From Promethearchaeota archaeon (GTDB taxonomy: Archaea; Asgardarchaeota; Lokiarchaeia; Sigyniarchaeales; SOKP01): a stretch of 64,000 nucleotides of DNA. This document shows positions 11,967-60,739 of this stretch, piece after piece (position 1 is the first letter of the stretch; each line of letters begins with the position of its first letter). The translations under genes and the position numbers were made by a program. The stretch covers positions 105,167-169,166 of the forward strand of contig JAHPZI010000021.1 in the NCBI GenBank assembly GCA_019058295.1. The letters run 5' to 3'. Below the pieces are notes generated by a model. That model searched no databases, was not told the DNA's origin, and saw only the letters and a list, made by a program, of their open reading frames with translations.

Positions 11967-12135
11967 TTATATTACTTCCTATATTCTTATACTTTCTTAA
12001 ATTATTTTCATTATAGAGTTATCTTATTTAAATATTTTTTTAAAAAACAAATCAGAATAACGATATTGAAAAATTAAATAAATTTTTATTCAAACATCGA
12101 TTATTTATAGAATTAAATAAAAATTAGGTGAAATT

Positions 12136-12636
12136 ATAATTAAAGTCTTAGTTACTTATTTTTCTCAAACGGGAAATACTAAAAAGATTGCTGAAGCGAT
12201 ATTTGAGGAAATTCAAACAGAAAAAGAAATTAAACCGCTTAAGGAAGTCGATGATCTTGAGGGATACGACTTTTCTTTTATTGGATTTCCTATACATTCA
12301 GGTGGACCAACCAAAAGGGCAGCAGATTTTATTAAAAAAAATGCTATCGATAAGAAAATAGCTCTGTTCGTCACCCATGCAATGCCAGCGGATTATGATA
12401 TGCTTCCGGGTTTATTAAATAGATGCGAAAAATCTGCAAGAAAAGCAGACCTAAAGGGATTTTTTGACTGTCAAGGGGAGCTCGCTGAAAAAGTAGCTCA
12501 AATGTTGTTAAAAAGTGGAAATCCTCAATTGGAATTATTTGGGAAAATGCGTGATGTGACTGTTGGTCATCCAAATGCGGATGAAATTGAGAGTGCTCGT
12601 AATTTTGCTAAAGAAACAATAGAAAAGTTTAAGTAA
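12136..12636 (+). CDS. Flavodoxin-like protein; no canonical start codon (ATA 12136 or ATT 12133/12139 proposed)
   Basis: The frame opens after TAA 12118-12120. It reads (I)IKVLVTYFSQTGNTKKIAEAIFEEI... with the FMN loop S/T-x-TGNT at 12154-12180. The first in-frame ATG is at 12382, which is the track ORF 12382-12636. An SD-like GGTGA lies at 12127-12131. Confidence 0.75.
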   Translation: MIKVLVTYFSQTGNTKKIAEAIFEEIQTEKEIKPLKEVDDLEGYDFSFIGFPIHSGGPTKRAADFIKKNAIDKKIALFVTHAMPADYDMLPGLLNRCEKSARKADLKGFFDCQGELAEKVAQMLLKSGNPQLELFGKMRDVTVGHPNADEIESARNFAKETIEKFK

Positions 12637-21391: not shown

Positions 21392-22237
21392 TTATATAAG
21401 AGATAGTAAGCTTTCTAATTGATTAAATTTAAATGGTTTTAAAAAATAACCATCAGCACCTGTTTCTATTAATTTTTTCTTGACTTCCGATTCTGGAACA
21501 GCAGTGACATAAAAAACAGGGATATCTTTAAGATCATCATTAAATTTAATTTTTTTACAAATCTCATAACCGCTTATATCTGGTAAAATTATATCTAATA
21601 AGATAATCTTTGGTTTATAATTCTTTAACTCATCTAATCCTTGATTTCCCGTAAGAACTCCTTTGCATGTAAGATTTTTTGACTCAAAAAAATCATCTAG
21701 GATTGTTATAGCAGGTGGATTATCTTCAATTATTAAAATGTCATATTCAAATTTCTCGGGTTCAATCTCGTAGACAAGTTGATTAATTGTATTCTCAAGA
21801 AATTTGCTTTGATTGAGAATTTCTTTTATTTTTGTAAGAATATTTGGATTTAAATTGTTCGATTCATAATCAATAATTAATTGTGAAAAACCTTGTATAG
21901 TCGTTAACGGTTCTTTTAAATCATGAGAGATTCTAGAAATATCCTTTAAAAAATCTGATTTTGGTGAATTTTCAATATAAGAATTTACTGCTTTTCTAAT
22001 AAATTTCGAAATCGTAGAAAAACTTTTTTCATCTGCAAAATTCTGCCATTTTTCTTTTGTTTCATCAGAAACTAAGATTCCTATACCCTTTTTATCTATT
22101 CCATAAATTTCTTCTCCTCTTTGCCATTTCTTAAATCCTTCAGTTATAGCATTTCGCCAAATAGCTTTCTTTCCAGTTTCTGTTTCGTAACGGAGCATCT
22201 CTTCAGTTAATTTCTCTTCTTTAGTAATGAATAACAC
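21392..22237 (-). CDS. RHH-like domain, HisKA (DHp) and receiver (REC) protein lacking an ATPase domain
   Basis: GIGILVSDETKEKWQNFADEKSFSTISKFIRKAVNSYI looks like a ribbon-helix-helix. H-box ISHDLKEPLTTIQGF is present. The REC domain has IIEDN, LLDIILPD, YVTAV and FLKPF. No N/G1/G2 boxes are present. Confidence 0.75.
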   Translation of the reverse strand: MLFITKEEKLTEEMLRYETETGKKAIWRNAITEGFKKWQRGEEIYGIDKKGIGILVSDETKEKWQNFADEKSFSTISKFIRKAVNSYIENSPKSDFLKDISRISHDLKEPLTTIQGFSQLIIDYESNNLNPNILTKIKEILNQSKFLENTINQLVYEIEPEKFEYDILIIEDNPPAITILDDFFESKNLTCKGVLTGNQGLDELKNYKPKIILLDIILPDISGYEICKKIKFNDDLKDIPVFYVTAVPESEVKKKLIETGADGYFLKPFKFNQLESLLSLI

Positions 22238-22365
22238 CCATAATCATAAAATCTGATTAATCTATTTAATGAAAATTAATCTTTCTTGTTAAATAATTAA
22301 TTATCCAATTTAATAAATTTTTATTGAAAAAAAATTTTTTTTTTTAAAAAAAAAGTAAGTTTTTT

Positions 22366-23802
22366 TTATGATTCAAATAACTCTTTTATTTTTATTGCTG
22401 TTTTATTAAAGAAATTTAATCTTTTAAGTTCGATATCTGTATCAGGTGTGATATATTTTTGTCTTAAGAAATTGATCTTTTCTGTTAAATTATCAAATAT
22501 CCAAGAAATTCTTTTTCCTTGACCAAATTCGTAAAAATCTTCTTTTACACTTTTCATAATTTTATTAATCGTCTTTTTATCCATTTTTTGTTTGTCTTTT
22601 GGCACAAAAGGCGTTGTTCCATCAAAATAAGTTAAAAGTATAAAATTTCTTTCATAATTATTTATATTAATATTTTTAACTAAAAATTCACCATTAGCAG
22701 AGGTCAATTTAAGGAAGTCTAGTGCTTGTAAGTGTAAGCTTTCAATGGTTCTTAGCGCAATTGTGCAAATCAGTGAGAACATTGCCCCTATTGCCATGGA
22801 ATCGAGCTCAATCTCTGTATATTCTGATATCATCATCCCTTTATTATCGATTAAAAAACATGAATGAAACGCCCCATTATCAGATAATTCTTGTAAGATT
22901 TCCTGAAGAATTCCTGCTTTTCCTTTTTTCTGCTCCTCTTTTTCTTTAATTTTGTCTTGATCCTCTATTAACTCAGAATAAACGTTTATATTCTTTTGAT
23001 AGGCAGTTTTTTCTAATTCAGCTTTTCCAATTTCAAATTCTAACTTTTCCTTATCGAATTCAATTTTATTCTTCTCAAAATCATATTTATTTTTTTCTAA
23101 CATCAATTGAATTTTTCTAATTTGCTTCTCTCTTTCTTCGAGATCAATTTTTTTTTGTTCTAATTGCTTATTTATTTCTATAAAATGTTCTCTAGCCTCC
23201 TTTATTTTGTCACTTCGGCCTTTAAAATCAATCTTAACATCTTCTAATTCTTTATTTTTTTGCTCAAATTCTTTTATTGATGTTTCAAATTCAATTCTTT
23301 TTTCTATTAATTCTTGGTTTCTATCTTCATATCTCTGTATTGATTCTTCTAATTTATTATATCTATTATTATAATCGTCGATTTTCTCATTTAATTCTTT
23401 TAATTTGTTTTCGTAAAAGGTTTTTAGATTTTCTTCCTCTTTGGTTAAGCTAATTTCTTTTGTTTCTAATTTTTTTTTATTTGTTTTAGAGTTTTTTGTT
23501 TCTAATTTTTTTTTATTTGTTTTAGAGTCTTTTGTTTCCAATTTTTTTTTATTTGCTTTAGAGTGTTCTGTTTTTACTTTATTAGTTTCTGATGAGATTA
23601 GATTACTACTTACTTTTAGGGTTTCATCTTCTATATTTTCCTTTATAATATCTGTATAAACCTCATCAATAACTTTTTTTACATCAGCATTAATATTTTC
23701 ATCTTTAAGAAATTCTTCTTTTGTTTTAGATATATGTGATACATCATCCGTGAGACTTTTCTCATGGGCATTAATTTGTTTTTCATTATCTTTAATTGGC
23801 AT
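22366..23802 (-). CDS. Long coiled-coil protein with a C-terminal roadblock/LC7 domain
   Basis: About 300 aa of K/E-rich heptad-like sequence (KLKELNEKIDDYNNRYNKLEES...). The C-terminus GAFHSCFLIDNKGMMISEY...DSMAIGAMFSLI...NGEFLVKNI...FILLTYF fits the roadblock pattern. Confidence 0.7.
   Translation of the reverse strand: MPIKDNEKQINAHEKSLTDDVSHISKTKEEFLKDENINADVKKVIDEVYTDIIKENIEDETLKVSSNLISSETNKVKTEHSKANKKKLETKDSKTNKKKLETKNSKTNKKKLETKEISLTKEEENLKTFYENKLKELNEKIDDYNNRYNKLEESIQRYEDRNQELIEKRIEFETSIKEFEQKNKELEDVKIDFKGRSDKIKEAREHFIEINKQLEQKKIDLEEREKQIRKIQLMLEKNKYDFEKNKIEFDKEKLEFEIGKAELEKTAYQKNINVYSELIEDQDKIKEKEEQKKGKAGILQEILQELSDNGAFHSCFLIDNKGMMISEYTEIELDSMAIGAMFSLICTIALRTIESLHLQALDFLKLTSANGEFLVKNININNYERNFILLTYFDGTTPFVPKDKQKMDKKTINKIMKSVKEDFYEFGQGKRISWIFDNLTEKINFLRQKYITPDTDIELKRLNFFNKTAIKIKELFES
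23458..23565. repeat. 3 x 36-bp tandem repeat inside the coiled-coil gene (encodes SK(A/T)NKKKLETK(D/N/E) x3)
   Basis: Copies start at 23458, 23494 and 23530. They are near-identical and in frame (12 aa per unit). Confidence 0.9.
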
Positions 23803-23854
23803 TTTTAATCAAAAATTTGATATGTTATTAATTATCCAGTATATTACTTTGACC

Positions 23855-24307
23855 TCATAATAGTGAGCCTAAACTTTCAAAGAGCTCCTCTTTAGAAGTT
23901 TCTTCTTTGAAATAGTTTTTAATCTCATCAATAATTTTATTTGTTTCAAATTGAATTAATCCAAAATTAATCTTTTTAGAAAATATTACTTGAATAAGTA
24001 CGTTTGAAAATACTCTTGTTATTAATATTGAAAAATCTGCATCAAGGCTTTTGTCCATACCGGCATCAATCTTTATTTGTTCGAGCATTTTATTTTTATT
24101 GATTATTTCTATACCTCTTTCTGCCATTGATAAAATACTTGCTGAGATCGCAGCAAAATTAATATTCATTTCCTCATATTGGTCGTTTTGTTCACTATTT
24201 GAAGCTATTACTAAACCATCTTCAGTAATTAAAGTTGAACTTTTAACGCCAGTATTTAAAATAAAATCATCTAAAAGATTTATTAATTTAATTCTAATAT
24301 CTGACAT
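23855..24307 (-). CDS. Roadblock/LC7-domain protein (150 aa; paralog of 26307-26759)
   Basis: VKSSTLITEDGLVIAS...NFAAISASILSMAERG...FSILITRV...IQVIFS fits alpha-beta-beta-alpha-beta-beta-beta. It aligns end to end with the 26307 product. Confidence 0.7.
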   Translation of the reverse strand: MSDIRIKLINLLDDFILNTGVKSSTLITEDGLVIASNSEQNDQYEEMNINFAAISASILSMAERGIEIINKNKMLEQIKIDAGMDKSLDADFSILITRVFSNVLIQVIFSKKINFGLIQFETNKIIDEIKNYFKEETSKEELFESLGSLL

Positions 24308-24390
24308 ATAACATCCTGTTTTTCTTTGTCAATATTTTACTTTTTTAGCTTTAATTGTAAATAAAAAAAAAAAAATAATAATTAAATTCT

Positions 24391-24756
24391 TTAACCTAAA
24401 ACCATTTTGATTTTATCCAGAGCAGCATTTATCTCGAAATCTATTAGTCCTATTTTGGCATCTGAGGGAGCTAATGCAATTAGAGCTGCTTGCGCTAATT
24501 GATGGACAACAATAAGATTATCCTTACCACTAATTACATGTGAACTCACTTTACCTGATTTTAAAGTATCCGCAACCCTTGACCCAACTGATGTTAAAGC
24601 TGCAGTCATGGCAGCTATTCCACGCTCATCCATATCTTTATGTAAAGCGCTTGCCATCATCTGACCTTTCAAAGATATAACTGCACTGTTTGATACTTCG
24701 GAATTCTTTTCTAAATCATATAATATGTCTTTAATTTTTTCTGATCGAGCACTCAT
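24391..24756 (-). CDS. Roadblock/LC7 (MglB-like) protein
   Basis: 121 aa. VSNSAVISLKGQMMASAL...GIAAMTAALTSVGSRVADTL...SHVISGKDNLIVVHQL...ALIALA is the classic MglB/COG2018-like pattern. Confidence 0.8.
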   Translation of the reverse strand: MSARSEKIKDILYDLEKNSEVSNSAVISLKGQMMASALHKDMDERGIAAMTAALTSVGSRVADTLKSGKVSSHVISGKDNLIVVHQLAQAALIALAPSDAKIGLIDFEINAALDKIKMVLG

Positions 24757-24774
24757 TTATATTTACCTCTTTTT

Positions 24775-24900
24775 TTATTTTTTATCATAAAATTCACAAG
24801 TGTCCTTTTCCTTCGCTGTAACAAAAATTTTCTTTTTCTCACACCAGACTAATCCATCGGAATTTTCATCTCCTGCAAATTTACAATCACTTTTTGCCAC
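24775..24900 (-). CDS. Unlisted 41-aa Cys-containing small protein within the roadblock operon
   Basis: A GTG at 24900 lies 6 nt after the upstream TGA and is preceded by GAGGGGTGA. The product is MAKSDCKFAGDENSDGLVWCEKKKIFVTAKEKDTCEFYDKK with a TAA at 24777-24775. It is too short for the track. Confidence 0.35.
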   Translation of the reverse strand: MAKSDCKFAGDENSDGLVWCEKKKIFVTAKEKDTCEFYDKK

Positions 24901-24906
24901 TTTAAC

Positions 24907-25383
24907 TCACCCCTCTAAATTTATCGTGAAAATTGTTGTATTTTCTTCTGGTTTCCACTCAGCTTTTTCAACTGATCCTGTTTTTCCGGTATTTTTTTCA
25001 ATAGCACCATATAAAATAGCTACCATTGGACAGGGAGGAATATAATTGATATCATTGCCTCTAAGAACTTTTGTAATTGGTGCTAAAACACATTCTCCAA
25101 GATCAAGAACGACTTTACTATCACTAACCTCAATAATGTTTGCTCTTTGACAAAAGCCAACTTCTTTAATCTTTTTAGTAAAATCTTCTGTAATAGATTT
25201 AACATCTGATCCTCCGACCTCTAATCCGACATCCTTCATTAAACCTTTAACACCATCTGAATGAAACATCTCTGCCATTTCATTTTGAATCAGTGGAATA
25301 TTTAATCCCATTTTTAATAAGGAATTCACTGCTACACCAAAACTAATGTTTGTAAATGTCAATAAATCTTTAAATTCTGTCAT
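24907..25383 (-). CDS. V4R-like (COG1719-type) small-molecule-binding domain protein
   Basis: Conserved Cys/Gly spacing (GFCQRANI...LGECVLAP...PPCPMVAILYGAIEKNTG). Its position next to roadblock and MglA-like genes matches known archaeal neighbourhoods. The assignment comes from pattern only. Confidence 0.5.
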   Translation of the reverse strand: MTEFKDLLTFTNISFGVAVNSLLKMGLNIPLIQNEMAEMFHSDGVKGLMKDVGLEVGGSDVKSITEDFTKKIKEVGFCQRANIIEVSDSKVVLDLGECVLAPITKVLRGNDINYIPPCPMVAILYGAIEKNTGKTGSVEKAEWKPEENTTIFTINLEG

Positions 25384-25475
25384 ACTTTTTCATCTCTTTT
25401 TTTTTTTTATTATTATTTTTTTTAAAGAAAACTATTTTTTTAGTAGATTTTTTTATGAAAAGTAAATGTTATAAG

Positions 25476-25546
25476 TTATATTTAAATCTTTTTATAAAGA
25501 AAGTTTTTGTCACTTTGTGGTTCCATATAAAAAGATTTAAATATAA
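25476..25546. promoter_or_regulatory. Perfect 21-bp inverted repeat (TTATATTTAAATCTTTTTATA / TATAAAAAGATTTAAATATAA) with a 29-nt spacer in the divergent control region
   Basis: The arms at 25476-25496 and 25526-25546 are exact reverse complements. Each arm contains TATA-box-like TTTAAATA. The repeat lies between the divergent operon starts at 25383 (-) and about 25664-25679 (+). Confidence 0.6.
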
Positions 25547-25678
25547 GAAGAAAATTATATTTATGTCAGAAAAAATTATATAGAAAATGATATTTTTTTA
25601 TATTTTATAAAAAGGTATCCATTTTTTAGAAAATTATGAAGAAAAAATGAGGAGAGTTTAAAAATTAGTGAAAAAAGT

Positions 25679-26305
25679 ATAAAAATTTTCGTGACTGGAT
25701 TTTTTAATTCGGGAAAAAGTACTTTAGTACATACGATTGACGACAAAGCTATCCATGTAGAAAAGGAATTAAGCAAAACATTTAATGAAGAAAAAACAAC
25801 AACTACTACTGGTTTTGATTTGGGAAGACTAGTTTGGGCTCGTCCAAACTTAAATAACGAAACTGAAGGGGTAATTATGAGTAAGACAGAGTATTTAAGA
25901 GATAAAGATGAATATTTGGGATGGCATATAAAATATGTCGAGTTAAAAGGCAGTCCTGGCCAAATGCAATTTTCTACTGTCCGTAAAATTCTAGCAAAGG
26001 GAAGCGACGGTGTGATCTTTTTAATTGATGGATGTGATTTAGCGAATATTGGCAATGCGTTAGTCGTTTTGGAAGAAATCAAAGCAGTTCTAGGTTCAAA
26101 TATACCAATGCGAATAATTGCTAATAAATCTGATAGGGATGACTTTCATGGATGTGAGGTTATTACAAGTATGATTGGTGAAACAGTATATGTGGGTTCT
26201 GGTAAATATAATGTAGGTATAAAAGATGCAATTATTGAAGTACTTAAGACAATTTTATATGGTTTAGACCAAAATAAAATTTCAAAAGAGAGTGTGGTAG
26301 CTTAA
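25679..26305 (+). CDS. MglA-like small GTPase (COG2229 type); the start lies upstream of track GTG 25691 (ATA 25679 or ATT 25664)
   Basis: G1 is GFFNSGKST. G3 is GSPGQ followed by RKILAKGSDGVIFLIDG, compare MglA TVPGQ...RKLILKGVDGVVFVADS. G4 is NKSD. The beta1 strand (IKIFVTG) is encoded before the first canonical start. The frame opens after TGA 25637-25639. Confidence 0.8.
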   Translation: MKIFVTGFFNSGKSTLVHTIDDKAIHVEKELSKTFNEEKTTTTTGFDLGRLVWARPNLNNETEGVIMSKTEYLRDKDEYLGWHIKYVELKGSPGQMQFSTVRKILAKGSDGVIFLIDGCDLANIGNALVVLEEIKAVLGSNIPMRIIANKSDRDDFHGCEVITSMIGETVYVGSGKYNVGIKDAIIEVLKTILYGLDQNKISKESVVA

Positions 26306-26306
26306 A

Positions 26307-26759
26307 ATGGCTAACTTAAAAGAAAAACAAATTGTACAGATTCTGAAAGATTTTAGAGGAAGGACAAACATTCTATGTTCTATTTTACTCAATGAAGATG
26401 GTTTGATTATTGCATTAGATCAAGCTCAAATGAACGAAGATGATGAGTATCATTTATCTTTCAGTGCAATTTGCTCTGGTATTGTTGCATTAGCAGAAAA
26501 TGGTATTGAAACGATAAAAGAGGAAAATAATGTTAAAAAAATATCAATTCAAGCGGGAGAACAATTAGATAAGGAGGGATTTACAATTATTCTTCAATCG
26601 GTCACAAAAAATATTAAACTATCGATAATGTTTCCAACGTACTTGAATTTCGGTGTAATTCTTTTTGAATTAAATCAAACAATTCAAAGATTATCGGAGT
26701 ATTTTTCAATTCCTGAACAAATCAAAAATCTCGATGGTGTCAGTACATTAATGCAATAA
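26307..26759 (+). CDS. Roadblock/LC7-domain protein (150 aa; paralog of 23855-24307)
   Basis: The start is coupled to the GTPase stop (TAAAATG, 26303-26309). ILCSILLNEDGLIIAL...SFSAICSGIVALAENG...FTIILQSV...LSIMF fits the roadblock pattern. Confidence 0.7.
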   Translation: MANLKEKQIVQILKDFRGRTNILCSILLNEDGLIIALDQAQMNEDDEYHLSFSAICSGIVALAENGIETIKEENNVKKISIQAGEQLDKEGFTIILQSVTKNIKLSIMFPTYLNFGVILFELNQTIQRLSEYFSIPEQIKNLDGVSTLMQ

Positions 26760-26895
26760 ATTAAAAGATTTATCACTTTAAAAAAAAGTTATTTGTAAAA
26801 TTAAGGATTACAAACCAAAAGCAAATGTCTCAAGTTCAATTTATAATTGAAAATTATGAAAAAGATTTTATGAAACTCAGTAGAGAGGTTTTCTC

Positions 26896-35600: not shown

Positions 35601-36071
35601 AATTGCATTTGGCGAATTTTCATATATATTTCGATATTTCTCTTCTGATTCTTTTAATTTTTGTTCTGCTCTCTTGCGTTCTGTAATATTACGCCATATT
35701 GCTTGTATATATTTCTTATTGTGTATATTTATTGCCTTGGCACTTACATAAACATCTATTATTTCACCGCTTTTTGTTATTTGTTTCGTTTCAAAGAGAT
35801 CAGCTCCTTCTGTTAGAACTTTGAAAAAATGTCCCTTAACTTCTTCTGGTGTTTCGATAATTTCAAAGGCTGGTATCTTAAGTTTCTTAAATTCATCACG
35901 TGTATAGCCTAAGTTTTTATATGTTACATCATTGAAATCTACTAGTTCTCCTGTCTCTGGATCGATGAGTACAATTGAGTCTGCTGCTTGTTCGAATAAA
36001 GCGCGATATTTTATTTCACTATCCCTTAATAACTCATCATCATCATTTTCTTCATTTTTAGAATCGTTCAA
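32691..36071 (-). CDS. Multi-PAS (about 8 modules) sensor histidine kinase
   Basis: Repeated ITERKKAEQKLKESEEKYR linkers. H-box LFAHDISNILQNI. HATPase_c with FNGIKYN, DNGIGV and GMGLGL. Confidence 0.9.
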   Translation of the reverse strand: MNDSKNEENDDDELLRDSEIKYRALFEQAADSIVLIDPETGELVDFNDVTYKNLGYTRDEFKKLKIPAFEIIETPEEVKGHFFKVLTEGADLFETKQITKSGEIIDVYVSAKAINIHNKKYIQAIWRNITERKRAEQKLKESEEKYRNIYENSPNAIALLDFTGNIIDCNSGTETIFGYSRDELIGQNYLQLPFYSESMINVLKERFQAITKGGGIKPQELEVKRKDGEIARIKSDIANITIRGENFFQAIIQDITEQKKAEEKLKESEKNFRDIANNANDCIFIGMGEGKIVYANERASEVTGYSIDELLKLNIKNLLHPDEINKVMERFKKRIDGKPTLAKYETILLKKDGPNVCVEINAAKTEWKGEPADLAILRDISDRKKTEQKLKESEESYRLLFEKSPIGIGVVSPGKVLKMNSVLQEITGYSKEEVNMVGIQNTYVSNEQRSELFQILSEKGFVRDFEVELRRKDNSTFTALLNMDSIGEKDENTYLSIMRDITERKKAEQKLKESEKKFRAIFEALPDLFFLVAADTTILEYSGKMEELYIPPEEFLGKKAIEILPPEVGRVSAEHIKKAINSKEQQIFEYKLQMKDGIHYYEGRFLYFSENKVVMFIRDITERKKAEQKLKESEEKYRMLVEKSLQGICILQEVQIIFANKALSNILGYSVDDLLSMSKEEVISLIHPDDREFVLNRHKERLKGKPVPPNYQFRIIRKDGTPRIVEIYASLITFNNKPAVQEIFIDITEQKNAEENLKESEEKYRTMSERYEMLLESITDGVYAINRDWVYTLVNKLAEKLVNMPRDNLLGHKITDVFPGIEQTPFFKTYEDVMNSRIPNRVRDSFNLPNGHIGHYEVSVYPITEGILCIARDITEEVVAEQKLKKSEEDFREAYERAEFYKDLFAHDISNILQNIQSSLGLLSMWENKPEKINKINELMIIINDQLIRGSKLVSNIRKLSEITETVSPLEKVDGIQILKEAKGFIHKSLPNKDINIAIESQIKEVKVNANQLLLDVFENILFNGIKYNENKRIEIFVKISREFKNGTNYAKFEFIDNGIGVPDVMKEHIFKGISDRKEKTHGMGLGLLLVKRVLSEYNGDIWVEDKVKGDPSQGSNFIILIPELI

Positions 36072-44435: not shown

Positions 44436-46886
44436 TTATATTTTACTTCTTTTATCCAAAATTTTATTGACAAAGACTTTAATGAAATCTGTAATCAAAA
44501 AAGCAATAATAGCGTAAATCCAAACAAACAATGCTAACATCCAACCCATTGCGGGAAGTAAAATTCCATATACAGTGATCAATGTAGCAATAATTTGGGT
44601 AGCAACCACTGCTATAAACAAAATTTTTGCTGGTCTTTTAGTCCAAAAATGCCCTTTTGTTCTTACAACAAAAACAGTTAAATGCCCTGCTACGGATAAT
44701 TTAAGATATATGAGGGATTGAATAGTTATTTGATCTACATGAAAAACCTGTAATCCGATATATAATACGCCAAATGATGAAAATACTCCTATTATCCCCA
44801 AAATAGATGCCATAGTTAATACTCTCCTCATATCCCAAGCTTCAGGACTTTTATTATACTCTACATTGTCATATGCTATAGTCATAATTGCCGCATCATT
44901 TAAAATTGCTAATAATACTATCATTAACGCAGTTATGGGATAAAATTGAAAAATGATAATAGCTAAAGTTATAAAGATTAAAATTCGTATTGTTTCAGCA
45001 ATTCGATATGTTGAATAATTTAGCATACGTTGAAAGATTTTGCGACTTTCTATTGTAGCATCAATTATAACCGAAAGACCAGGTTTTGTAAGAGTAATGT
45101 CTGCCGCAGATTTAGCTGCATCAGTAGCATTAGATACAGCTATACCTACATCTGCCTTTTTCAGGGCTGGAGCATCATTAACACCATCTCCTGTCATCCC
45201 TACTATATGTCCTCTATCTTGAAGTAGTTCTACTATATGATATTTGTGTTCTGGAAAAACTTCAGCAAAACCATCAGCGTTTTCAACAAGTTCTATTGTA
45301 TCTTCATCAGATTTATCCATAATGGACGAAGAGGGTACTATATTCGTACCTAAATTTACTGTTTTTGCTATTTCTTTAGCAATAGAACTATGATCACCTG
45401 TTAACATTTTAACATTTAATCCCATTGCCATAGCAGTTTTTATTGTTTCTGCTGAATCATCTCGAGGAGGATCATAAAGTGCGATCAGACCAATAAATAT
45501 CCATGAATCTTCATTATTTTTTGTTTTAGCTACTCCAAGAGCTCTGTAACCCTTTTCTGCAAATTCATCAACATACTCATTTACTTTATTACTTAAATCT
45601 TGTTTATTTGAGGATAATGATAATATTATCTGAGGGGCTCCTTTAGCAACTTTAAATTTTTTACCATCTTTATCTTTTACTTCGGCCTCTGTACGTTTAA
45701 TAACTGGGTCAAATGGAGTAAAATTTGCTATAGTATACCCATTAATTATTTTTTCAAATCCTTCAATCATTTTTGCTTTATCAATTATCGTATTATCAAT
45801 TGCATCTTCGTCTTCTTCTCTTGAGGCAAGTGTTCCATATATTAAGATATCATTACTACTAAAATCATTAAATGAAATCACATTTCCAACTGATAAATCA
45901 TTTTTAGTTATAGTACCAGTCTTATCAGAACATAATATATCAACTCCTGCAAGTTCTTCAATAGCAACTAATTTACTAACAATAGCTTCTTTTTTTGTTA
46001 AAGCTACTGCTCCAATTGCCATCGTGACGGATAAAACAGCAGGTAATGCCACCGGTATTGATGCAACTGTCAGAACTAAAGCAAATTCAAATGTACTGAG
46101 AAGATCTGTATTTCGTAAAATTGACACGAGAAAGATTATACCTACAAGAATAGCAGCAAAAACCATTAAAAAATTTCCAATTTTCATAACAGCTTTTTGA
46201 AAATGAGATCGATTTTTAGCTTCTTCTACAAGTTTAGTTGTTTTACCGAAATATGTATTCATTCCTGTTGTAACAACTAACCCATCCATTTCACCTTGTT
46301 TAACTATGGCTCCAGAATAGCCAATATCAGAAACCTTTTTTTCAACAGGTAATGATTCTCCTGTTAATGCAGATTGATCTACTAACAAATAATCTCCTTT
46401 AGTTAATTTAACATCAGCAGGAATTATATCTCCTAATCTAACTCGTATTATATCTCCAGGTACTAAGTCTCTTGCCTCTAATGTTTTCCATTTACCATCA
46501 CGTTTTACTTTAGCTTTTAAGGCTAAATTTTGTTTTAAAAGCTCAATTGCATTATCTGCTTTATGTTCTTCCCAAAATCTGACAATTGCGTTTAAGAGTA
46601 ATAGTGCTAAAATAATCCAAAAATCTGCCCAATGAGCAATTACTGCTGAAAGGATTACTGCAATTTCAATCATCCATGGAATTGGTCCCCAAAAATTACT
46701 TAGAAATTTTATTATTGGGCTAACTTTTTTTTCAGTTATTTCATTATATCCATATTTCTCATATCTTTTTTCTACTTCAGAATTAGAGAGTCCGCTATCG
46801 TTTGATGATAGAATTTTGTATAACTCGTCAATATTTGTGTTTTCTAATTCTTCACTTGTAATTGATTCTTGATTCATAAAATCCAC
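44436..46886 (-). CDS. P-type ATPase, type IIIA (plasma-membrane H+-ATPase-like)
   Basis: CSDKTGTITKN, MLTGDH and MTGDGVNDAPALKKADVGIAV are present. GDIIPADVKLTKGDYLLVDQSALTGESLPVEKK closely resembles plant/fungal PMA-type pumps. Confidence 0.9.
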   Translation of the reverse strand: MDFMNQESITSEELENTNIDELYKILSSNDSGLSNSEVEKRYEKYGYNEITEKKVSPIIKFLSNFWGPIPWMIEIAVILSAVIAHWADFWIILALLLLNAIVRFWEEHKADNAIELLKQNLALKAKVKRDGKWKTLEARDLVPGDIIRVRLGDIIPADVKLTKGDYLLVDQSALTGESLPVEKKVSDIGYSGAIVKQGEMDGLVVTTGMNTYFGKTTKLVEEAKNRSHFQKAVMKIGNFLMVFAAILVGIIFLVSILRNTDLLSTFEFALVLTVASIPVALPAVLSVTMAIGAVALTKKEAIVSKLVAIEELAGVDILCSDKTGTITKNDLSVGNVISFNDFSSNDILIYGTLASREEDEDAIDNTIIDKAKMIEGFEKIINGYTIANFTPFDPVIKRTEAEVKDKDGKKFKVAKGAPQIILSLSSNKQDLSNKVNEYVDEFAEKGYRALGVAKTKNNEDSWIFIGLIALYDPPRDDSAETIKTAMAMGLNVKMLTGDHSSIAKEIAKTVNLGTNIVPSSSIMDKSDEDTIELVENADGFAEVFPEHKYHIVELLQDRGHIVGMTGDGVNDAPALKKADVGIAVSNATDAAKSAADITLTKPGLSVIIDATIESRKIFQRMLNYSTYRIAETIRILIFITLAIIIFQFYPITALMIVLLAILNDAAIMTIAYDNVEYNKSPEAWDMRRVLTMASILGIIGVFSSFGVLYIGLQVFHVDQITIQSLIYLKLSVAGHLTVFVVRTKGHFWTKRPAKILFIAVVATQIIATLITVYGILLPAMGWMLALFVWIYAIIAFLITDFIKVFVNKILDKRSKI

Positions 46887-49344: not shown

Positions 49345-49465
49345 ATCTCTTTTTTATTATTTTTATTTAACTATTCTAATAGATTAAGATTTAAAACCTT
49401 AATAGAGTATCAAAATTAGTTTTATATGTGAGTTTAGCTAAAATAAAATAAAATAAAAAAACCCA

Positions 49466-49933
49466 TTAACGAACAATTAAAACATCACATGATGCGTGTT
49501 CTAATGCTTTCTCAGCAACTGATCCCATAAGAAACTCTTTTAATTTTGAATGTTCACCTTTATATCCTAATACAACAAGGTCAAATCCTTCTTCCTCTAC
49601 AACTTTTTTAAGATATTCTGCAGGGTTTTCATCTTTTATTAATCTAGTTTCTACTTTAGCCATAGAAGAGCCAAAAATTTCTCGAGCATTATTTAATATA
49701 GTTTTTCCTTCTTCAATTTTTGTTCTTTCAATATCTGAAGAACTCATTGCTGGGTAATGACTTGCTGTTGGCATTATGGAGAGTACTGGTACATTCTCAA
49801 AAAACTTATGCTTAATTGCATGGAAAATGACGACCTTTCTTGGCCATTTTTCTTCAATTTCTCTAATTTTTATAACTGCTCGCATAGAATCTTCAGATCC
49901 ATCAACACCAATCAAAATTTTCTTATAAATTAT
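49466..49933 (-). CDS. Universal stress protein (UspA family); start probably upstream of track TTG 49915
   Basis: KKILIGVDGSEDS...VVLGYKGEHSKLKEFLMGSVAEKALEHASCDVLIV. The frame opens after TGA 49939-49937. GGTGA (49941-49937) is followed by ATA 49933 and ATT 49930. Confidence 0.8.
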   Translation of the reverse strand: MIYKKILIGVDGSEDSMRAVIKIREIEEKWPRKVVIFHAIKHKFFENVPVLSIMPTASHYPAMSSSDIERTKIEEGKTILNNAREIFGSSMAKVETRLIKDENPAEYLKKVVEEEGFDLVVLGYKGEHSKLKEFLMGSVAEKALEHASCDVLIVR

Positions 49934-53504: not shown

Positions 53505-54653
53505 ATGGTATTAATGAGTTTTGAAAGTTTCATAAAAGTAAATAAAACTATTTCTAATTCTTATGTAGAGGAATGGAAAAAGCAAGGAAAAAAAATTGTA
53601 GGATATTACTGTTCTTATATTCCAGAGGAGATTTTAGTTTCAGGAGGAATTTTACCATTTAGAATGAGATCGGTCGAAGCGGAAGGAACTTCTCGAGCAG
53701 ATACTATTTTAAGTCGTTTTAATTGCTCGTTTGTTCGAGCATCCCTAGATTTAGCGATGCAAGGTAAATATAACTTTCTTGATGGATTAGTGGTTATGAA
53801 TTCTTGCGACCACGCTCGAAGGATGTATGATATTTGGAAATATAAAATAATTGGAAAGTTGGAGGGAATTGAGGAGAATTTTGGATTATTTTTTATTTCT
53901 TTACCACATATTATTACAGAAAGAGGATATAATTGGTTATTAGAGGAATTCACATTTTTTAAAGAAAATTTAGAAAAAACCTATAATATAACGATTTCCG
54001 AAGAAAATCTAAAAACTGCAATTAAAACTTTGAATGAAAACAGAAAACTTCTAAAGGAAATTCATAAATTTCGAATTCTAGATAAACCAAAACTTAATGG
54101 AGTTGAAGCTCTTAAATTAAATATCGCAACTACCGCTACTCCAAAAGAAATTTCAAACCAAGTATTAAGTTCTTATTTGCAGTCTCTAAAGGATCGAGAA
54201 GGCATATCAGATTATAGAGCAAGATTATTGATTACAGGAAGTCTAATTGATGATCCTACTTTTTTAAAAATTATTGAAGATGTTGGCGGTCTTGTGGTCT
54301 CAGATTTATTATGCTTTGGTGTTAGAAATTTTTGGGACTTAACTCCTGAAACAGGAGATCCTTTAGAATCAATTACCAAACGTTATTATGAGAAAATCTC
54401 TTGTCCAAGAATGATGGATGATCATGACAGGCGATTTAAATTCCTACAAGAGTTAATAAAAGAAGCGAAAGTAGATGGAGTAATCGGAACAAGAATCGAG
54501 TTTTGCGATTTAAATGGATGTGAATGCATGCTATATGAACATGAATTGGAAGATTTAAACATTCCCATGTTAAGTTTAGATAGAGATTATTTTGTTGGTG
54601 ATAAAGGAAGATTTAAAACTCGATTCGAAGCTTTTATCGAACAAATTGAATAA
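53505..54653 (+). CDS. 2-hydroxyacyl-CoA dehydratase / benzoyl-CoA reductase BcrC/BadD-type subunit (HGD-D family)
   Basis: IVGYYCSYIPEEILVSGGILPFRM, NSCDHARRMYD and RIEFCDLNGCECMLYEHEL are typical HGD-D family blocks. Confidence 0.8.
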   Translation: MVLMSFESFIKVNKTISNSYVEEWKKQGKKIVGYYCSYIPEEILVSGGILPFRMRSVEAEGTSRADTILSRFNCSFVRASLDLAMQGKYNFLDGLVVMNSCDHARRMYDIWKYKIIGKLEGIEENFGLFFISLPHIITERGYNWLLEEFTFFKENLEKTYNITISEENLKTAIKTLNENRKLLKEIHKFRILDKPKLNGVEALKLNIATTATPKEISNQVLSSYLQSLKDREGISDYRARLLITGSLIDDPTFLKIIEDVGGLVVSDLLCFGVRNFWDLTPETGDPLESITKRYYEKISCPRMMDDHDRRFKFLQELIKEAKVDGVIGTRIEFCDLNGCECMLYEHELEDLNIPMLSLDRDYFVGDKGRFKTRFEAFIEQIE

Positions 54654-54670
54654 AAAAAAAGGTTAATTAT

Positions 54671-55978
54671 ATGAGTAGCCATAAAATTATTCCGTATGAA
54701 ATATTATATGAAGCAATATGTACCACAAAGGACCTTGTTGAAGGTGGCCCCGCTAAAGATGAACTTTTAGTGTTAAAATCATTTTTGAAACACATGAAAA
54801 CCGTTATTAAAAGATATCTAGATAATGCAGATTCAGGGTTACCTGTAATAGGACATCATTTTGCATGGCCAACAGAAATATTTTATTGCTTCGATTTTGT
54901 CCCCGTTGTATTTGAAGGAATTCCATACATACTGAGTGCATTATTACCCGAAGGTTCTGAAAGGTTCTATGATATCGCAGATAGCTTTGGTCATCCTTAT
55001 CATTCTTGTACCTCTCAAAAAGGAACTTTGGGCATGGTCTTGGACGGTTTATTTGAATTTGATGTAATATCAACGCCAACGAGTCCATGTGATAATACTT
55101 TTGCAACTTATCCTGTTATAAAACAATTATATGATAAAATCAAAAAGCAAAAAACACCATTTATAATTGCTGATATGCCATATTATCGTGATGATCGCTC
55201 TTATAATTACTACGGAAAAGAATTAAATAGAGTAGTTTCAGAAATAGGTCAAATTATCGGTCAAGAACCTGATTATGAGAAGTTAAGAAAAGCTATTGAT
55301 GTAAATAATAAAGCAATTGAAATTATTGCAGAAATAAACGAATTTAAAAAACTTACACCATGTCCAATTGAATCCATGTTTTGTCCTTTAATGACTGCAG
55401 TTTTGGCATTCATCCCAGGCCAACCTGAAAGAATAGGTTTTTTTAAAGATGTATTAGAAATCGCAAAAAAGCGAGCTAATAAAGGTGAGAGAGCACATGA
55501 AGGAGAAGAAAAAATACGAACCGTCTGGCCATATATGTCTATCTTTTTTGACATTGGATTCTGTGAATGGTTGGATCGGGAAATTGGAGCGACAATACTA
55601 TTAGATATATTCAATTATTTATTTTTTGATGTTATTGATACCTCAAAAAGCGAAGAACATATTTTTAAAGGATTAGCAAAACAATCGATGAATTATCCTA
55701 TGGTAAGACAATCCGCAACTTTTTGTGATGACCTTATCACAGATTTTATCTATTTATCAAAAGAATATAAAGCAGATTGTGCAATCTTCACAGCTCACTT
55801 AGGTTGTAAACAAAGCGTTAGCGTTATCCAATTATTAAGAGAGGCATTCCGAGATGAGATTGGAATCCCAATGCTTTCAATTGATCTTGATATAGGAGAT
55901 GCCCGATTTACTTCTATAGCAACTGTAAAAAGAGAAATAGAAAATTTTACTAAAATTCATGATTTTTCGAAAAAATAA
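54671..55978 (+). CDS. 2-hydroxyacyl-CoA dehydratase / benzoyl-CoA reductase BcrB/BadE-type subunit (HGD-D family)
   Basis: PVIGHHFAWPTEIFYCFDFVPV, YHSCTSQKG, TSPCDN and FTAHLGCKQS are conserved-Cys blocks of the family. Confidence 0.75.
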   Translation: MSSHKIIPYEILYEAICTTKDLVEGGPAKDELLVLKSFLKHMKTVIKRYLDNADSGLPVIGHHFAWPTEIFYCFDFVPVVFEGIPYILSALLPEGSERFYDIADSFGHPYHSCTSQKGTLGMVLDGLFEFDVISTPTSPCDNTFATYPVIKQLYDKIKKQKTPFIIADMPYYRDDRSYNYYGKELNRVVSEIGQIIGQEPDYEKLRKAIDVNNKAIEIIAEINEFKKLTPCPIESMFCPLMTAVLAFIPGQPERIGFFKDVLEIAKKRANKGERAHEGEEKIRTVWPYMSIFFDIGFCEWLDREIGATILLDIFNYLFFDVIDTSKSEEHIFKGLAKQSMNYPMVRQSATFCDDLITDFIYLSKEYKADCAIFTAHLGCKQSVSVIQLLREAFRDEIGIPMLSIDLDIGDARFTSIATVKREIENFTKIHDFSKK

Positions 55979-56055
55979 TGTTCAATCTTTAATCTTTTAT
56001 TATTAATTAATCACATAATCGTTTATAGAATCATTAGCATCAGTGGGATTTCGAT

Positions 56056-56856
56056 TTGAAGGATTATAATTTTTATATTGGGGTGGATGCGGGAGCATCT
56101 TTTTGTAAAGCAATTGCTTTAAATTCGAAGAATAACGAAATTAAAGCAAATTCAATCACTTTTGTCCTTGGAAATCCTGAAAAAGCAGCAAATAAGTGTT
56201 TAGATGAAATAGGAAAGAAATTAAATGTGAAATTAAAAATTTTAAAAAAAAATGTAATTACTACAGGACAAAATGGGGATAAGATTAGAATTGGACAAAA
56301 TAAATCCGAAATAATATGCATTGGGAGAGGAGCCTATGCACTCGATCCTAATATAAGAATTATGGTGGATGTTGGGAGCTTTAGCATGAAAGTATTAAAA
56401 ATAGATGAATCTGGAATAATCAAAGATTATCTTATGAACAATAAATGCGCTGCAGGATCAGGAGTCCTATTAGAACTCGTTGCTGAAGGCTTAGAAATGA
56501 GAATTGACGAATTAAATAATAAAGCATTTCAAGCAAAAAAGCCAATTCAGATTTCAAGCCAATGTAGCATTTTTGCTGAATCTGAGGTAATTTCTTATAA
56601 GAATGAAGGAGCAAATATTCCTGATTTAGTTGCAGGGGTGTGTAATTCTGTAGCAGGTAGAATTTATCCCTTAATTCGGATGATTGATAAAGAAACAAAT
56701 AAAGTAGCTTTTAGTGGAGGGGTCGCTAAAAACAAATATATAGCTGAAAATCTTGAGGAACGATTAGGATTTAAATTGGTCAAATTATCACTTGAACCAG
56801 AATATATAGCTGCATATGGAGCTGCAATTATAGCAAAAGAGGGAGGGGGAACATAA
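56056..56856 (+). CDS. BcrAD/BadFG/HgdC-type ATPase (electron-activating subunit 1)
   Basis: ASKHA phosphate-1 motif GVDAGASFCKA. Cluster-bridging Cys motifs NNKCAAGSG and SSQCSIFAESEV. TTG start. Confidence 0.85.
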   Translation: MKDYNFYIGVDAGASFCKAIALNSKNNEIKANSITFVLGNPEKAANKCLDEIGKKLNVKLKILKKNVITTGQNGDKIRIGQNKSEIICIGRGAYALDPNIRIMVDVGSFSMKVLKIDESGIIKDYLMNNKCAAGSGVLLELVAEGLEMRIDELNNKAFQAKKPIQISSQCSIFAESEVISYKNEGANIPDLVAGVCNSVAGRIYPLIRMIDKETNKVAFSGGVAKNKYIAENLEERLGFKLVKLSLEPEYIAAYGAAIIAKEGGGT

Positions 56857-56857
56857 A

Positions 56858-57640
56858 ATAGTATTTGCGGGAATTGATATAGGGTCTCTCACAGGTAAAG
56901 CATTATTGTTAGAAGATAGTGAGATCCGTGGATTTAAAATAATTAGGGTAAAAAAAACTCCCGTTGAAACTGCTGAAAGTGTTTTTGAAATGGTTTTATC
57001 CGAGACGGGGATAAATAGGGATAATGTAAAATTTGTGGTTAGTACAGGTTACGGGAGAGATAATATTCCCTTTTCTAATAAAAGTATGACAGAAATCACA
57101 TGCCATGGGTTAGGTGCCCATTTTCTAATACCAAGCATTCGGACGATAATTGATATAGGGGGTCAGGATTGTAAAGTAATCGCCGTAGATCGAACGGGTA
57201 AATTAGTTGAATTTGCAATGAATGAGAAATGCTCCGCAGGCACGGGAAGATATCTCGAAATAATGGCCAATTTACTCCATATTTCACTCGATGATCTTGG
57301 GACTTTATCATTGAAGAGTAAAACTCCTGTTCAATTGAAAAGTACTTGTAGTATTTATGCTCAAGCCGAGGTATTGCAATGTATCAATTCTGGATTTAAG
57401 AAGTCTAATATAGCTGCGGGAATTAATAAAGCTATGGCTGAGCGCGTTTATTCCATGTCAAAAAAAGTTAAGATGAGACCAGATGTGGTTATTTCTGGAG
57501 GTGTAGCTAAAAATGCTGGTGTTGTCGGTTATCTGGAAGAAATGATAGGAATCGAATTCTTAAAATTACCAATTGATCCTCAAATTATTGGTGCTCTTGG
57601 AGCTGCTGTAATTGCTCAAGAGAGGTATAAAAGAAAGTGA
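56858..57640 (+). CDS. BcrAD/BadFG/HgdC-type ATPase (subunit 2); start extended to ATA 56858
   Basis: Track ORF (TTG 56906) omits the essential phosphate-1 motif. The extended frame reads (I)VFAGIDIGSLTGKALLLED.... NEKCSAGTGRYLE and KSTCSIYAQAEV are present. The frame opens after TAG 56831-56833. The junction is TAAAATA at 56854-56860. Confidence 0.85.
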   Translation: MVFAGIDIGSLTGKALLLEDSEIRGFKIIRVKKTPVETAESVFEMVLSETGINRDNVKFVVSTGYGRDNIPFSNKSMTEITCHGLGAHFLIPSIRTIIDIGGQDCKVIAVDRTGKLVEFAMNEKCSAGTGRYLEIMANLLHISLDDLGTLSLKSKTPVQLKSTCSIYAQAEVLQCINSGFKKSNIAAGINKAMAERVYSMSKKVKMRPDVVISGGVAKNAGVVGYLEEMIGIEFLKLPIDPQIIGALGAAVIAQERYKRK

Positions 57641-57786: not shown

Positions 57787-60057
<2,271 letters not shown>

Positions 60058-60247
60058 TGGTTTAATAGGCTCCCTGGTATCAGCAGCATCCCCAGACTTG
60101 GTAATATTGATATAAATAAAACTACAGGCGTATAGAAAAAAAAGTAGATAATTCCATTTTAAAATTACATTTTTTTTTATTAACTAGGAAGAAAATATAA
60201 ATTGTAAGCAATTCAATTTATTAGGAACACTAAAGTAGTGAAATATT

Positions 60248-60739
60248 ATATATCAATCCGAGAAAAACTCTGATCTCCCAGAAGAAGGATCTAGTAACTC
60301 TGAACTAGAAAATAATGAGCCTGAAAATTTAAATAAGGAGGATGAGAAAGAGCGCAATAAATATGTCAGAGGATTATATTTTACTGGGGGTATCATTTGT
60401 TTAAGTTTAGGAATTATAGGAATACTTTTACCTATTTTACCTACTACCCCTTTTCTTTTACTTGCCGCAGGATGCTTTTCTAGAAGTTCTAAAAGATTTT
60501 ATAATTGGTTATTAAACAACAGGATTCTTGGCTCATATATTAGAAACTTTAGAGAAGGAAAAGGAATGCCTATAAAAGTTAAAATTTTTACAATTTCTAT
60601 GTTATGGATAACAATTCTTTTAACATCGTTCATTTTTATTCAAATTATATGGATTAGATATGTACTAATCATCATTGCTATTGCTGTGACAATTCATATT
60701 ATTTTAATTCGCCCAAAAAAAAAAAAGAGTAAAAGTTAG
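60248..60739 (+). CDS. DUF454 (YbaN)-family small membrane protein; no canonical start (ATT 60245 / ATA 60248 proposed)
   Basis: Absent from the ORF track. The frame opens after TGA 60239-60241. It reads ...GLYFTGGIICLSLGIIGILLPILPTTPFLLLAAGCFSRSSKRFYNWLL..., the hallmark DUF454 core. The first in-frame ATG is at 60566. TAG at 60737-60739. Confidence 0.6.
   Translation: MYQSEKNSDLPEEGSSNSELENNEPENLNKEDEKERNKYVRGLYFTGGIICLSLGIIGILLPILPTTPFLLLAAGCFSRSSKRFYNWLLNNRILGSYIRNFREGKGMPIKVKIFTISMLWITILLTSFIFIQIIWIRYVLIIIAIAVTIHIILIRPKKKKSKS

Follow-up and report, generated by a model that had tools for sequence, protein, structure and literature searches.

The 64,000-nucleotide stretch of Promethearchaeota archaeon DNA analysed here (positions 105,167 to 169,166 of contig JAHPZI010000021.1, assembly GCA_019058295.1; hereafter the window) has a G+C content of 30%, and contains three gene junctions at which a TAA stop codon is followed by a single A and then by the opening of a co-directional downstream frame. 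These are TAAAATG at 26303-26309 on the forward strand, between genes for a small GTPase and a roadblock/LC7 protein; TAAAATA at 56854-56860, also on the forward strand, between two BcrAD/BadFG-type ATPase subunits; and TAAAATA at 32693-32687 on the reverse strand, between a histidine kinase and a response regulator. All three strings lie where the original prediction had placed them, and in each the TAA is the stop codon of the upstream gene. At the second and third junctions the downstream gene probably begins at AUA, and it is the initiation of such genes, in the window and in its relatives, that is considered here. The window derives from a Lokiarchaeia-type Asgard genome; the closest homologues of its proteins are found in Promethearchaeota, Lokiarchaeota, Helarchaeota and similar lineages, and both TFIIB and the GTPase/roadblock pair are present.

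Start codons at the one-nucleotide junctions

The ATPase junction lies within a four-gene operon (53505-57640, forward strand) of two PF06050 and two PF01869 genes, the order of which is kept in related loci L020, L022 and L028, and the layout of which matches that of class I benzoyl-CoA reductases and dehydratases related to them. The two HGD-D subunits (BcrB/BcrC or HgdA/HgdB-like; PF06050) occupy 53505-55978, the second starting from ATG 54671. They are followed by ATPase subunit 1 (56056-56856; 266 residues; PF01869, E=1e-34, profile positions 1-271), which starts at a TTG that is kept in orthologues and ends at TAA 56854-56856, and by ATPase subunit 2 (56858-57640; 260 residues; PF01869, E=2e-58), which opens at ATA 56858. 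Inspection of the translations identifies the cysteine motifs NNKCAAGSG and SSQCSIFAESE in subunit 1 and NEKCSAGTG and KSTCSIYAQAE in subunit 2, with the phosphate-1 loops GVDAGAS and GIDIGS, respectively. With two HGD-D proteins, two ATPases, putative [4Fe-4S]-bridging cysteines and the phosphate-1 loop, the operon has the predicted composition of a BcrCBAD or 2-hydroxyacyl-CoA dehydratase-type system.

The frame of ATPase subunit 2 is open from 56834, and within it position 2 of the Pfam BcrAD_BadFG profile falls at residue 13 (GIDIGS, the ASKHA phosphate-1 loop) and the first canonical start codon (ATG, GTG or TTG) at residue 25 (TTG 56906), leaving no such codon at the conserved N-terminus. 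In alignments ATA 56858 falls precisely on Met1 of the homologues, about 20 from Asgard archaea and 18 of 18 from bacteria; Asgard orthologues at 73-89% identity open with MVFAGID, MPFAGID, MIFAGID or VIFAGID (consensus M[VPI]FAGID), where the window reads IVFAGID. A scan of a genome-representative collection returned only distant bacterial homologues (<=47% identity), usable only as a control; 18 of 18 bacterial homologues have a canonical start, 3-4 residues before G-I/V-D-x-G-S. A Shine-Dalgarno (SD)-like sequence, GGGAGGGGG (56841-56849), lies within the 3' end of the subunit 1 gene and ends 8 nucleotides before the ATA; its duplex with the assumed anti-SD GAUCACCUCCU is calculated at -10.7 kcal/mol, and it is unpaired in the predicted fold.

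Comparison of orthologous junctions shows that the start codon changes whilst its surroundings persist. The window, L020 (from a different metagenome-assembled genome, MAG) and L021, at 93% identity, read TAA-A-ATA, as does L025 (92%), in which a GTG has additionally arisen inside the SD; L026 (88%) reads TAG-A-ATG, L028 (78%) TAA-A-GTG and L022-24 (78%) TAA-A-ACG, and in the more distant homologue L116 an AGGAGG is followed, after 7 nucleotides, by ACG right behind an in-frame TAG. The stop-N-start (+1) geometry is thus kept in five lineages, the codon at the start position of the subunit 2 orthologues never departs from ATG by more than one step (ATA, ATG, GTG, ACG), and the G-rich SD block 8-10 nucleotides upstream is kept across the orthologous junctions despite changes in the residues that it encodes. 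Against the other ATA-bearing orthologues, subunit 2 has a ratio of non-synonymous to synonymous divergence (dN/dS) of 0.11-0.12 at synonymous divergences (dS) of 0.3-0.5, and differences from orthologues within the 16 codons between ATA 56858 and the first TTG are mostly synonymous. The same ATA is present in independent assemblies (NCBI MAG, Logan, JGI), which rules out an assembly error.

Two observations concern the annotation of such genes. The SD consensus GGAGGTGA, sites resembling which lie 6-8 nucleotides ahead of the start at orthologous junctions, itself contains GTG which, where in frame, is taken as the start by gene callers (e.g. VHKIVFAG...); the near-cognate start three codons downstream is masked in this way in L025 (371-380), in L044 and in protein P0001. 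Separately, the NCBI annotation of the subunit 2 orthologue at L022 10001 (protein P0010) already starts at an ATA; the codon in question belongs to G-I-D-V-G-S and lies five codons past the homologous start position, where ACG stands.

The second AUA junction follows the same pattern. A multi-PAS histidine kinase (32691-36071, reverse strand; seven Pfam PAS domains and HATPase_c) starts at TTG and stops at TAA 32693-32691, and its 3' end contains the SD GGAGCTGA (32696-32703), 6 nucleotides before the ATA and with a duplex energy of -10.1 kcal/mol. The CheY-like response regulator (32300-32689, reverse strand; 129 residues; PF00072) opens at ATA 32689-32687; position 1 of the Response_reg profile corresponds to its residue 6, and the first canonical codon is a TTG at residue 22, beyond the acidic E-D pair. 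Directly downstream of the regulator lies a short open reading frame (ORF; 31976-32290, reverse strand), probably the remnant of a gene, whose only match is to PF13193, the C-terminal domain of AMP-binding enzymes.

A metagenome scan for the regulator returned 80 loci, 72 of which were readable at the start position. The codon there is ATG in 30, ATA in 16, TTG in 10, ACG in four, ATC and ATT in three each and CTG in one, with a further five loci, probably misaligned, carrying some other codon; 66 of the 72 were counted as ATG or its one-step neighbours, and 26 as near-cognate (ATA, ACG, ATC or ATT). In most of the near-cognate loci no canonical codon lies upstream in frame and the next one follows only 14-40 codons downstream; most also lack an alternative canonical codon ahead of the E/D-D motif. 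L030 (89% identity) and L031 (71%) retain the ATA over dS of 0.2 and 1.6, with dN/dS of 0.18 and 0.14. The upstream consensus of the family is ccGGAGGTGAtataaa, and median SD pairing is -9.7 kcal/mol for near-cognate and -10.7 kcal/mol for TTG starts, as against -5.9 kcal/mol for ATG (Mann-Whitney p=4e-5). The tight junction geometry is present in 24 of the 36 coupled regulator loci.

At the GTPase/roadblock junction it is the upstream gene that lacks a canonical start. The small GTPase (25664-26305, forward strand; 213 residues) opens at ATT 25664 and ends at TAA 26303-26305, and the roadblock/LC7 protein (26307-26759, forward strand; PF03259) begins at an ordinary ATG one nucleotide past this stop. 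GTPase orthologues begin MxxxxIKIFVTGFFNSGKST, and no canonical codon in the window gene is compatible with this conserved N-terminus; the homologous start codon is ATG in L113 and ATT in L117, where no canonical codon follows for 101 codons. L113 keeps the roadblock ATG, but there the two genes overlap by 8 nucleotides (L113 10644-10651), and the +1 geometry is not conserved. The pair belongs to a block (21392-31934) that is syntenic with L113/L114 at 50-80% identity and encodes a HisKA-receiver protein, a second roadblock protein, the GTPase, the roadblock protein, a HEAT-repeat protein, a CPIC-motif protein and the transcription factor TFB; the HEAT protein of the window carries an extra GNAT domain (487 as against 256 residues).

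The original prediction had given weight to the identity of the letters at these junctions, including an extended string, ATAAAATAG, which is indeed common to both ATA junctions. The strings are, however, no more frequent than chance would have them. TAAAATA occurs 93 times on both strands of the window against 79.3±9.7 expected from dinucleotide-preserving shuffles, and ATAAAATAG five times against 4.1±2.0. AATA directly follows the stop in four of the 54 window genes, and two of these stops, at 44436 (reverse strand) and 61547 (forward strand), have no co-directional gene downstream. Both the heptamer and the 9-mer are ruled out as motifs on these grounds. Because the window is only 30% G+C the letters of the heptamer carry no weight: TAAAATA is no more than the commonest stop codon (TAA), an A-rich spacer and ATA, and the shared string is a coincidence of an AT-rich genome. 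What is informative, and what stands of the earlier observation besides the positions, is the +1 spacing together with the lack of canonical starts. Of the window's 31 pairs of adjacent co-directional genes, none but those at these three junctions is separated by a single nucleotide, the next-tightest pairs having spacers of 5, 5, 8 and 17 nucleotides; the geometry itself is ordinary, being of an already characterised coupling type. No known RNA family was found at any of the three junctions in Rfam, and no unusual structure is predicted there. An overlapping TAAAATA run, (TAAAA)n, at 49439-49455 (forward strand) is intergenic, between the 47248-49344 gene and a universal stress protein gene.

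Probable near-cognate starts away from the tight junctions

Near-cognate codons also open genes that have no tight upstream neighbour. One such gene in the window encodes a flavodoxin (12139-12636, forward strand; 165 residues), for which ATT 12139 lies 7 nucleotides past GGTGA (12127-12131) and the upstream neighbour is on the opposite strand. Position 1 of the Flavodoxin_3 profile corresponds to residue 10 and the first canonical codon to residue 88, and the orthologues in L110 and L112 have GGTGA, 7 nucleotides and ATG at the homologous place. The exchange runs in the other direction for HGD-D subunit 2, where the window's ATG 54671 is replaced, 6 nucleotides past GGTGA, by ATT in L026 and by ATA in L028, and for a URO-D-like gene, which has ATG in the window and ATT in L110.

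Further genes provide evidence of varying quality. The universal stress protein (49466-49930, reverse strand) has a probable ATT start, 6 nucleotides past AAGGTGA, on moderate evidence: position 2 of the Pfam Usp profile is at residue 4, the first canonical codon is a TTG at residue 8, and the calculated SD duplex is -9.9 kcal/mol for the ATT as against -0.1 kcal/mol for the TTG. A protein of unknown function (28402-29088, forward strand) has, again on moderate evidence, a probable ATA start at 28402, from which the CPIC motif is reached after the same number of residues as from the TTG start of the L113 orthologue, and which has an SD-like TGGTGG with a duplex of -8.5 kcal/mol. For TFB (31044-31934, forward strand) the start is ambiguous, and may be ATT 31044 (SD TAGGTGG, -10.3 kcal/mol) or GTG 31035 (-2.7 kcal/mol); the L113/L114 orthologue opens at an ATT directly past a stop, its first canonical codon being residue 78. 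Finally, a DUF454 membrane protein (60245-60739, forward strand; PF04304) has no ATG, GTG or TTG for 108 codons, the first canonical codon being residue 109, whilst positions 1-113 of the PF04304 profile are matched at residues 43-157; the candidate starts are ATT 60245, ATA 60248 or a codon further in. The frame at 60245-60370 encodes an acidic low-complexity stretch of about 40 residues ahead of the membrane domain, inside which there is a AAGGAGGATGA motif with an out-of-frame ATG. Upstream of this gene lies a catalase-peroxidase (57841-60057, forward strand; KatG-like, 738 residues) with a G+C fraction of about 0.49-0.51 against a background of about 0.29, which looks like a recent horizontal acquisition.

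In total, four of the 54 window genes have firm near-cognate starts, three have moderate evidence for one and one is ambiguous, and about 12-13 of 141 long ORFs in the window and the loci of six relatives need a near-cognate start. On the sequence evidence, it looks as if some 7-13% of the window genes use such starts and as if this is a lineage-wide habit rather than a device specific to junctions. The near-cognate starts are preceded, 6-8 nucleotides upstream, by motifs of the GGAGG/GGTGA type, with duplex energies of -7.5 to -10.7 kcal/mol against the assumed anti-SD. In the cultured Lokiarchaeon, SD motifs are not prevalent overall (PMC7531240). Synteny with relatives extends no further than the Bcr operon and the 21-32 kb block, and an SD-anchored census using strict SD cores was dominated by the regulator family and proved unusable as an independent genome-wide test.

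Initiation model and competing explanations

Taken together, these comparisons make it likely that the two flagged downstream genes do begin at AUA, and that they do so within a wider habit of the lineage of near-cognate initiation behind strong SD sequences. The proposal that AUA is the start at both junctions, where the downstream frames open at the flagged codon with conserved N-termini, is borne out by the position of the ATA at Met1 of the orthologues, by the ATG, GTG, ATA and ACG found at the orthologous junctions, by the codon spectrum of the 72 regulator loci, and by the want of a canonical start ahead of the conserved motifs. In the mechanism that we envisage, the start would be fixed by a strong SD (GGAGG(G/T)G...) located in the upstream gene's final codons, 6-8 nucleotides before the AUA; the initiator Met-tRNA would pair with AUA through one wobble mismatch, the strong SD offsetting the weak codon; and ribosomes terminating one nucleotide upstream may add initiation by termination-reinitiation. 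In this lineage AUA, AUU, ACG and AUC swap freely with AUG, GUG and UUG at homologous starts, including those of genes without an upstream partner. A more general reading, which we favour slightly rather than hold with confidence, is that Promethearchaeota of this type have a generally relaxed start-codon stringency, several percent of genes starting at AUA, AUU, ACG or AUC, with the weak codon offset by an unusually strong SD and drifting in and out of AUG between close relatives; it would cover small GTPases, a TFB, two-component regulators and enzyme subunits alike.

Several considerations weigh against these interpretations. The anti-SD is an assumed sequence, the 16S rRNA lying outside the window. 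The loci of the census were fetched via the families that had drawn attention, so that its percentage is biased upward, and about 7 of some 130 ORFs remain once those families are excluded. The regulator loci are interrelated, such that their counts and p-values overstate their independence, and in a few loci (L025, L044) a GTG inside the SD could be the start instead. Truncated public gene calls are a partly valid proxy for near-cognate starts, since some simply missed a TTG: of three such calls L115 is of this kind, and L116 (ACG) and L117 (ATT) are genuine. Lastly, near-cognate starts are enriched at coupled regulator junctions (18 of 26 near-cognate loci, as against 9 of 30 with ATG; Fisher p=0.007), an association confounded by clade and SD strength but one that obliges us to allow for a contribution from reinitiation.

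The original prediction pointed in this direction, to termination-reinitiation at AUA as a possible way of setting the downstream partner below the upstream one. In its strict form, AUA would be used only through reinitiation one nucleotide past a stop, where codon requirements are relaxed, and the weak codon would be selected to keep the downstream partner low. In addition to the regulator enrichment, this is consistent with the fact that the two junction ATA starts of the window sit at its only +1 junctions apart from that of the GTPase/roadblock pair, and with work on Haloferax volcanii that demonstrated coupling of a native pair at the +1 distance and found complex subunits over-represented among tight pairs (PMC10666635). 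The overlapping or very closely spaced coupled pairs described by Huber et al. (2019, PMC6728339; 2023, PMC10666635) resemble those here in being co-directional, functionally paired and separated by +1 nucleotide, with the SD inside the upstream 3' end, but they start at AUG or GUG, unlike the near-cognate codons here, which are also found at uncoupled genes. Near-cognate starts with equal SD spacing but no tight upstream gene are seen in the window for the flavodoxin, the GTPase, the universal stress protein and the DUF454 protein, and elsewhere for TFB in L113, the URO-D-like gene in L110 and the regulators of L046 (ATT), L049 and L051 (both ATA), which have no upstream ORF. Because the same codons start genes without a tight upstream junction, reinitiation is not required for near-cognate starts, although such coupling may contribute where the geometry allows it. 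The stoichiometric part of the proposal fares no better: ATG or GTG stands at the identical junction in close orthologues, which gives no sign of a conserved need for low expression; a pair of the BcrA/BcrD type would, from general knowledge of class I benzoyl-CoA reductases, be expected at 1:1; and regulators, as is also generally understood, usually outnumber their kinases. We accordingly regard this explanation in its strict form as unlikely.

The remaining alternatives appear weaker still. In one of them the affected genes are decaying, or their proteins are made in N-terminally truncated form from the next canonical codon (TTG 56906, or the TTG at residue 22 of the regulator), as in the public gene calls, which use these TTG codons; some truncated calls elsewhere, as at L115, are plain caller errors. 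Truncation would, however, remove the ASKHA phosphate-1 loop GIDIGS and the acidic pair of the receiver, the stretch ahead of the TTG behaves as coding DNA, most of its changes being synonymous, the genes have dN/dS of 0.11-0.18, the ATA is retained over dS of up to 1.6, and the downstream TTG codons lack an SD (-3.9 and -2.7 kcal/mol, respectively). On the substitution patterns a pseudogene or truncated product is rejected, and we consider this account very improbable. Still less credible is the production of fusion proteins by programmed +1 frameshifting or stop bypass at ...ACA-TAA-A and ...ATA-TAA-A, with the G-rich block as a prfB-like stimulator. At both junctions the shift from the upstream to the downstream frame is +1, a G-rich SD-like block lies just upstream, and kinase-receiver fusions are generally known from elsewhere; as in prfB-type frameshifting there is also an in-frame stop. 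A +1 frame nevertheless follows automatically from a one-nucleotide spacer, and the P-site codons ACA and AUA are not slippery, being unable to re-pair in the +1 frame (CAU, UAU) with Thr and Ile tRNAs. Fold z-scores of -0.25 and -1.15 give no sign of a stimulatory structure, there is no Rfam match, and the confinement of the start position in orthologues to ATG and its one-step neighbours, ATG and GTG included, would be unneeded for a fusion; the same codons also occur at uncoupled genes. Together these points rule the frameshift out.

Equally remote is the idea that the codons are corrected or specially read, either by RNA editing to AUG or by a dedicated or modified initiator tRNA for AUA/AUU, as with the f5C34 tRNA-Met of animal mitochondria. 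The set AUG, AUA, AUU and AUC does resemble mitochondrial starts, as general knowledge has them, and frequent AUA/AUU starts in an AT-rich genome are common to both; nothing observed directly contradicts a modified initiator tRNA. In mitochondria, however, AUA is Met in elongation via modified tRNA-Met and there is no SD, whereas here initiation appears to be SD-led, ACG is used too, and internal ATA falls at conserved Ile/Val positions, which rules out reassignment of AUA to Met in elongation. Moreover, ACG, UUG and CUG differ from AUG at codon positions 2 and 1, for which one wobble modification or one type of editing would be insufficient, and no tRNA gene lies within the window.

Near-cognate initiation behind strong SD sequences, as favoured above, has partial parallels in other systems. 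The rare bacterial near-cognate starts (AUU of infC and pcnB in E. coli; translation table 11) are likewise one-step neighbours of AUG behind an SD. That of infC is an autoregulatory special case. Such codons make up less than 0.1% of annotated starts in model bacteria, where ATG, GTG and TTG account for 99.95%, and in E. coli AUA, AUU and AUC work at 1-2% of the level of AUG (10.1101/063800). Here they apparently open several percent of genes, are spread across ordinary enzymes, regulators and a transcription factor, and interchange with AUG among closely related genomes. Eukaryotic near-cognate initiation (CUG, ACG, GUG, AUU; tuned by eIF1 and eIF5) likewise draws on one-step neighbours at all three codon positions, and archaea share the aIF1/aIF1A/aIF2 core with eukaryotes (PMC6412873, PMC7531240). 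The eukaryotic cases, however, involve scanning and Kozak context and mostly concern upstream ORFs or N-terminal extensions, whereas those described here would be the sole starts of main ORFs, placed by an SD.

Annotation and wider significance

Standard gene callers truncate or lose these proteins because only ATG, GTG and TTG are allowed as starts. The public calls found for the affected window genes are without exception too short, and the lost residues include catalytic loops: ATPase subunit 2 is called at 244 rather than 260 residues (from the TTG), the regulator at 110 or 89 rather than 129, and the GTPase at 204 (from a GTG) rather than 213, which removes strand beta-1; there is no full-length call for the flavodoxin. 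If the near-cognate starts are correct, N-terminal peptides such as (M)VFAGIDIGSLTGK, (M)ASIFIVEDELAILQ, (M)KVLVTYFSQTGNTK and (M)SEKSIKIFVTGFFNSGK would be expected.

A literature search found no description of AUA, AUU or ACG starts in Asgard archaea, an absence that does not prove novelty. Near-cognate initiation as such is already known; what appears to be new, judging from the loci compared here, is how often and how widely an Asgard lineage uses it, and how freely the codons are exchanged for AUG among closely related genomes. Asgard proteomes are a major hunting ground for eukaryotic signature proteins, and a systematic blind spot for start codons would distort domain inventories, structure predictions and phylogenies. 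If start-codon stringency is indeed relaxed in this lineage, thousands of Asgard entries in public databases, some eukaryotic signature families included, would have lost N-terminal residues or be absent altogether. Tolerance of near-cognate initiation would also already exist in the archaeal lineage closest to eukaryotes. Use of such codons at perhaps 50-100 times the level of model bacteria would then offer a natural experiment on the balance between aIF1-type proofreading and SD strength, in a lineage placed close to where the eukaryotic initiation machinery arose.

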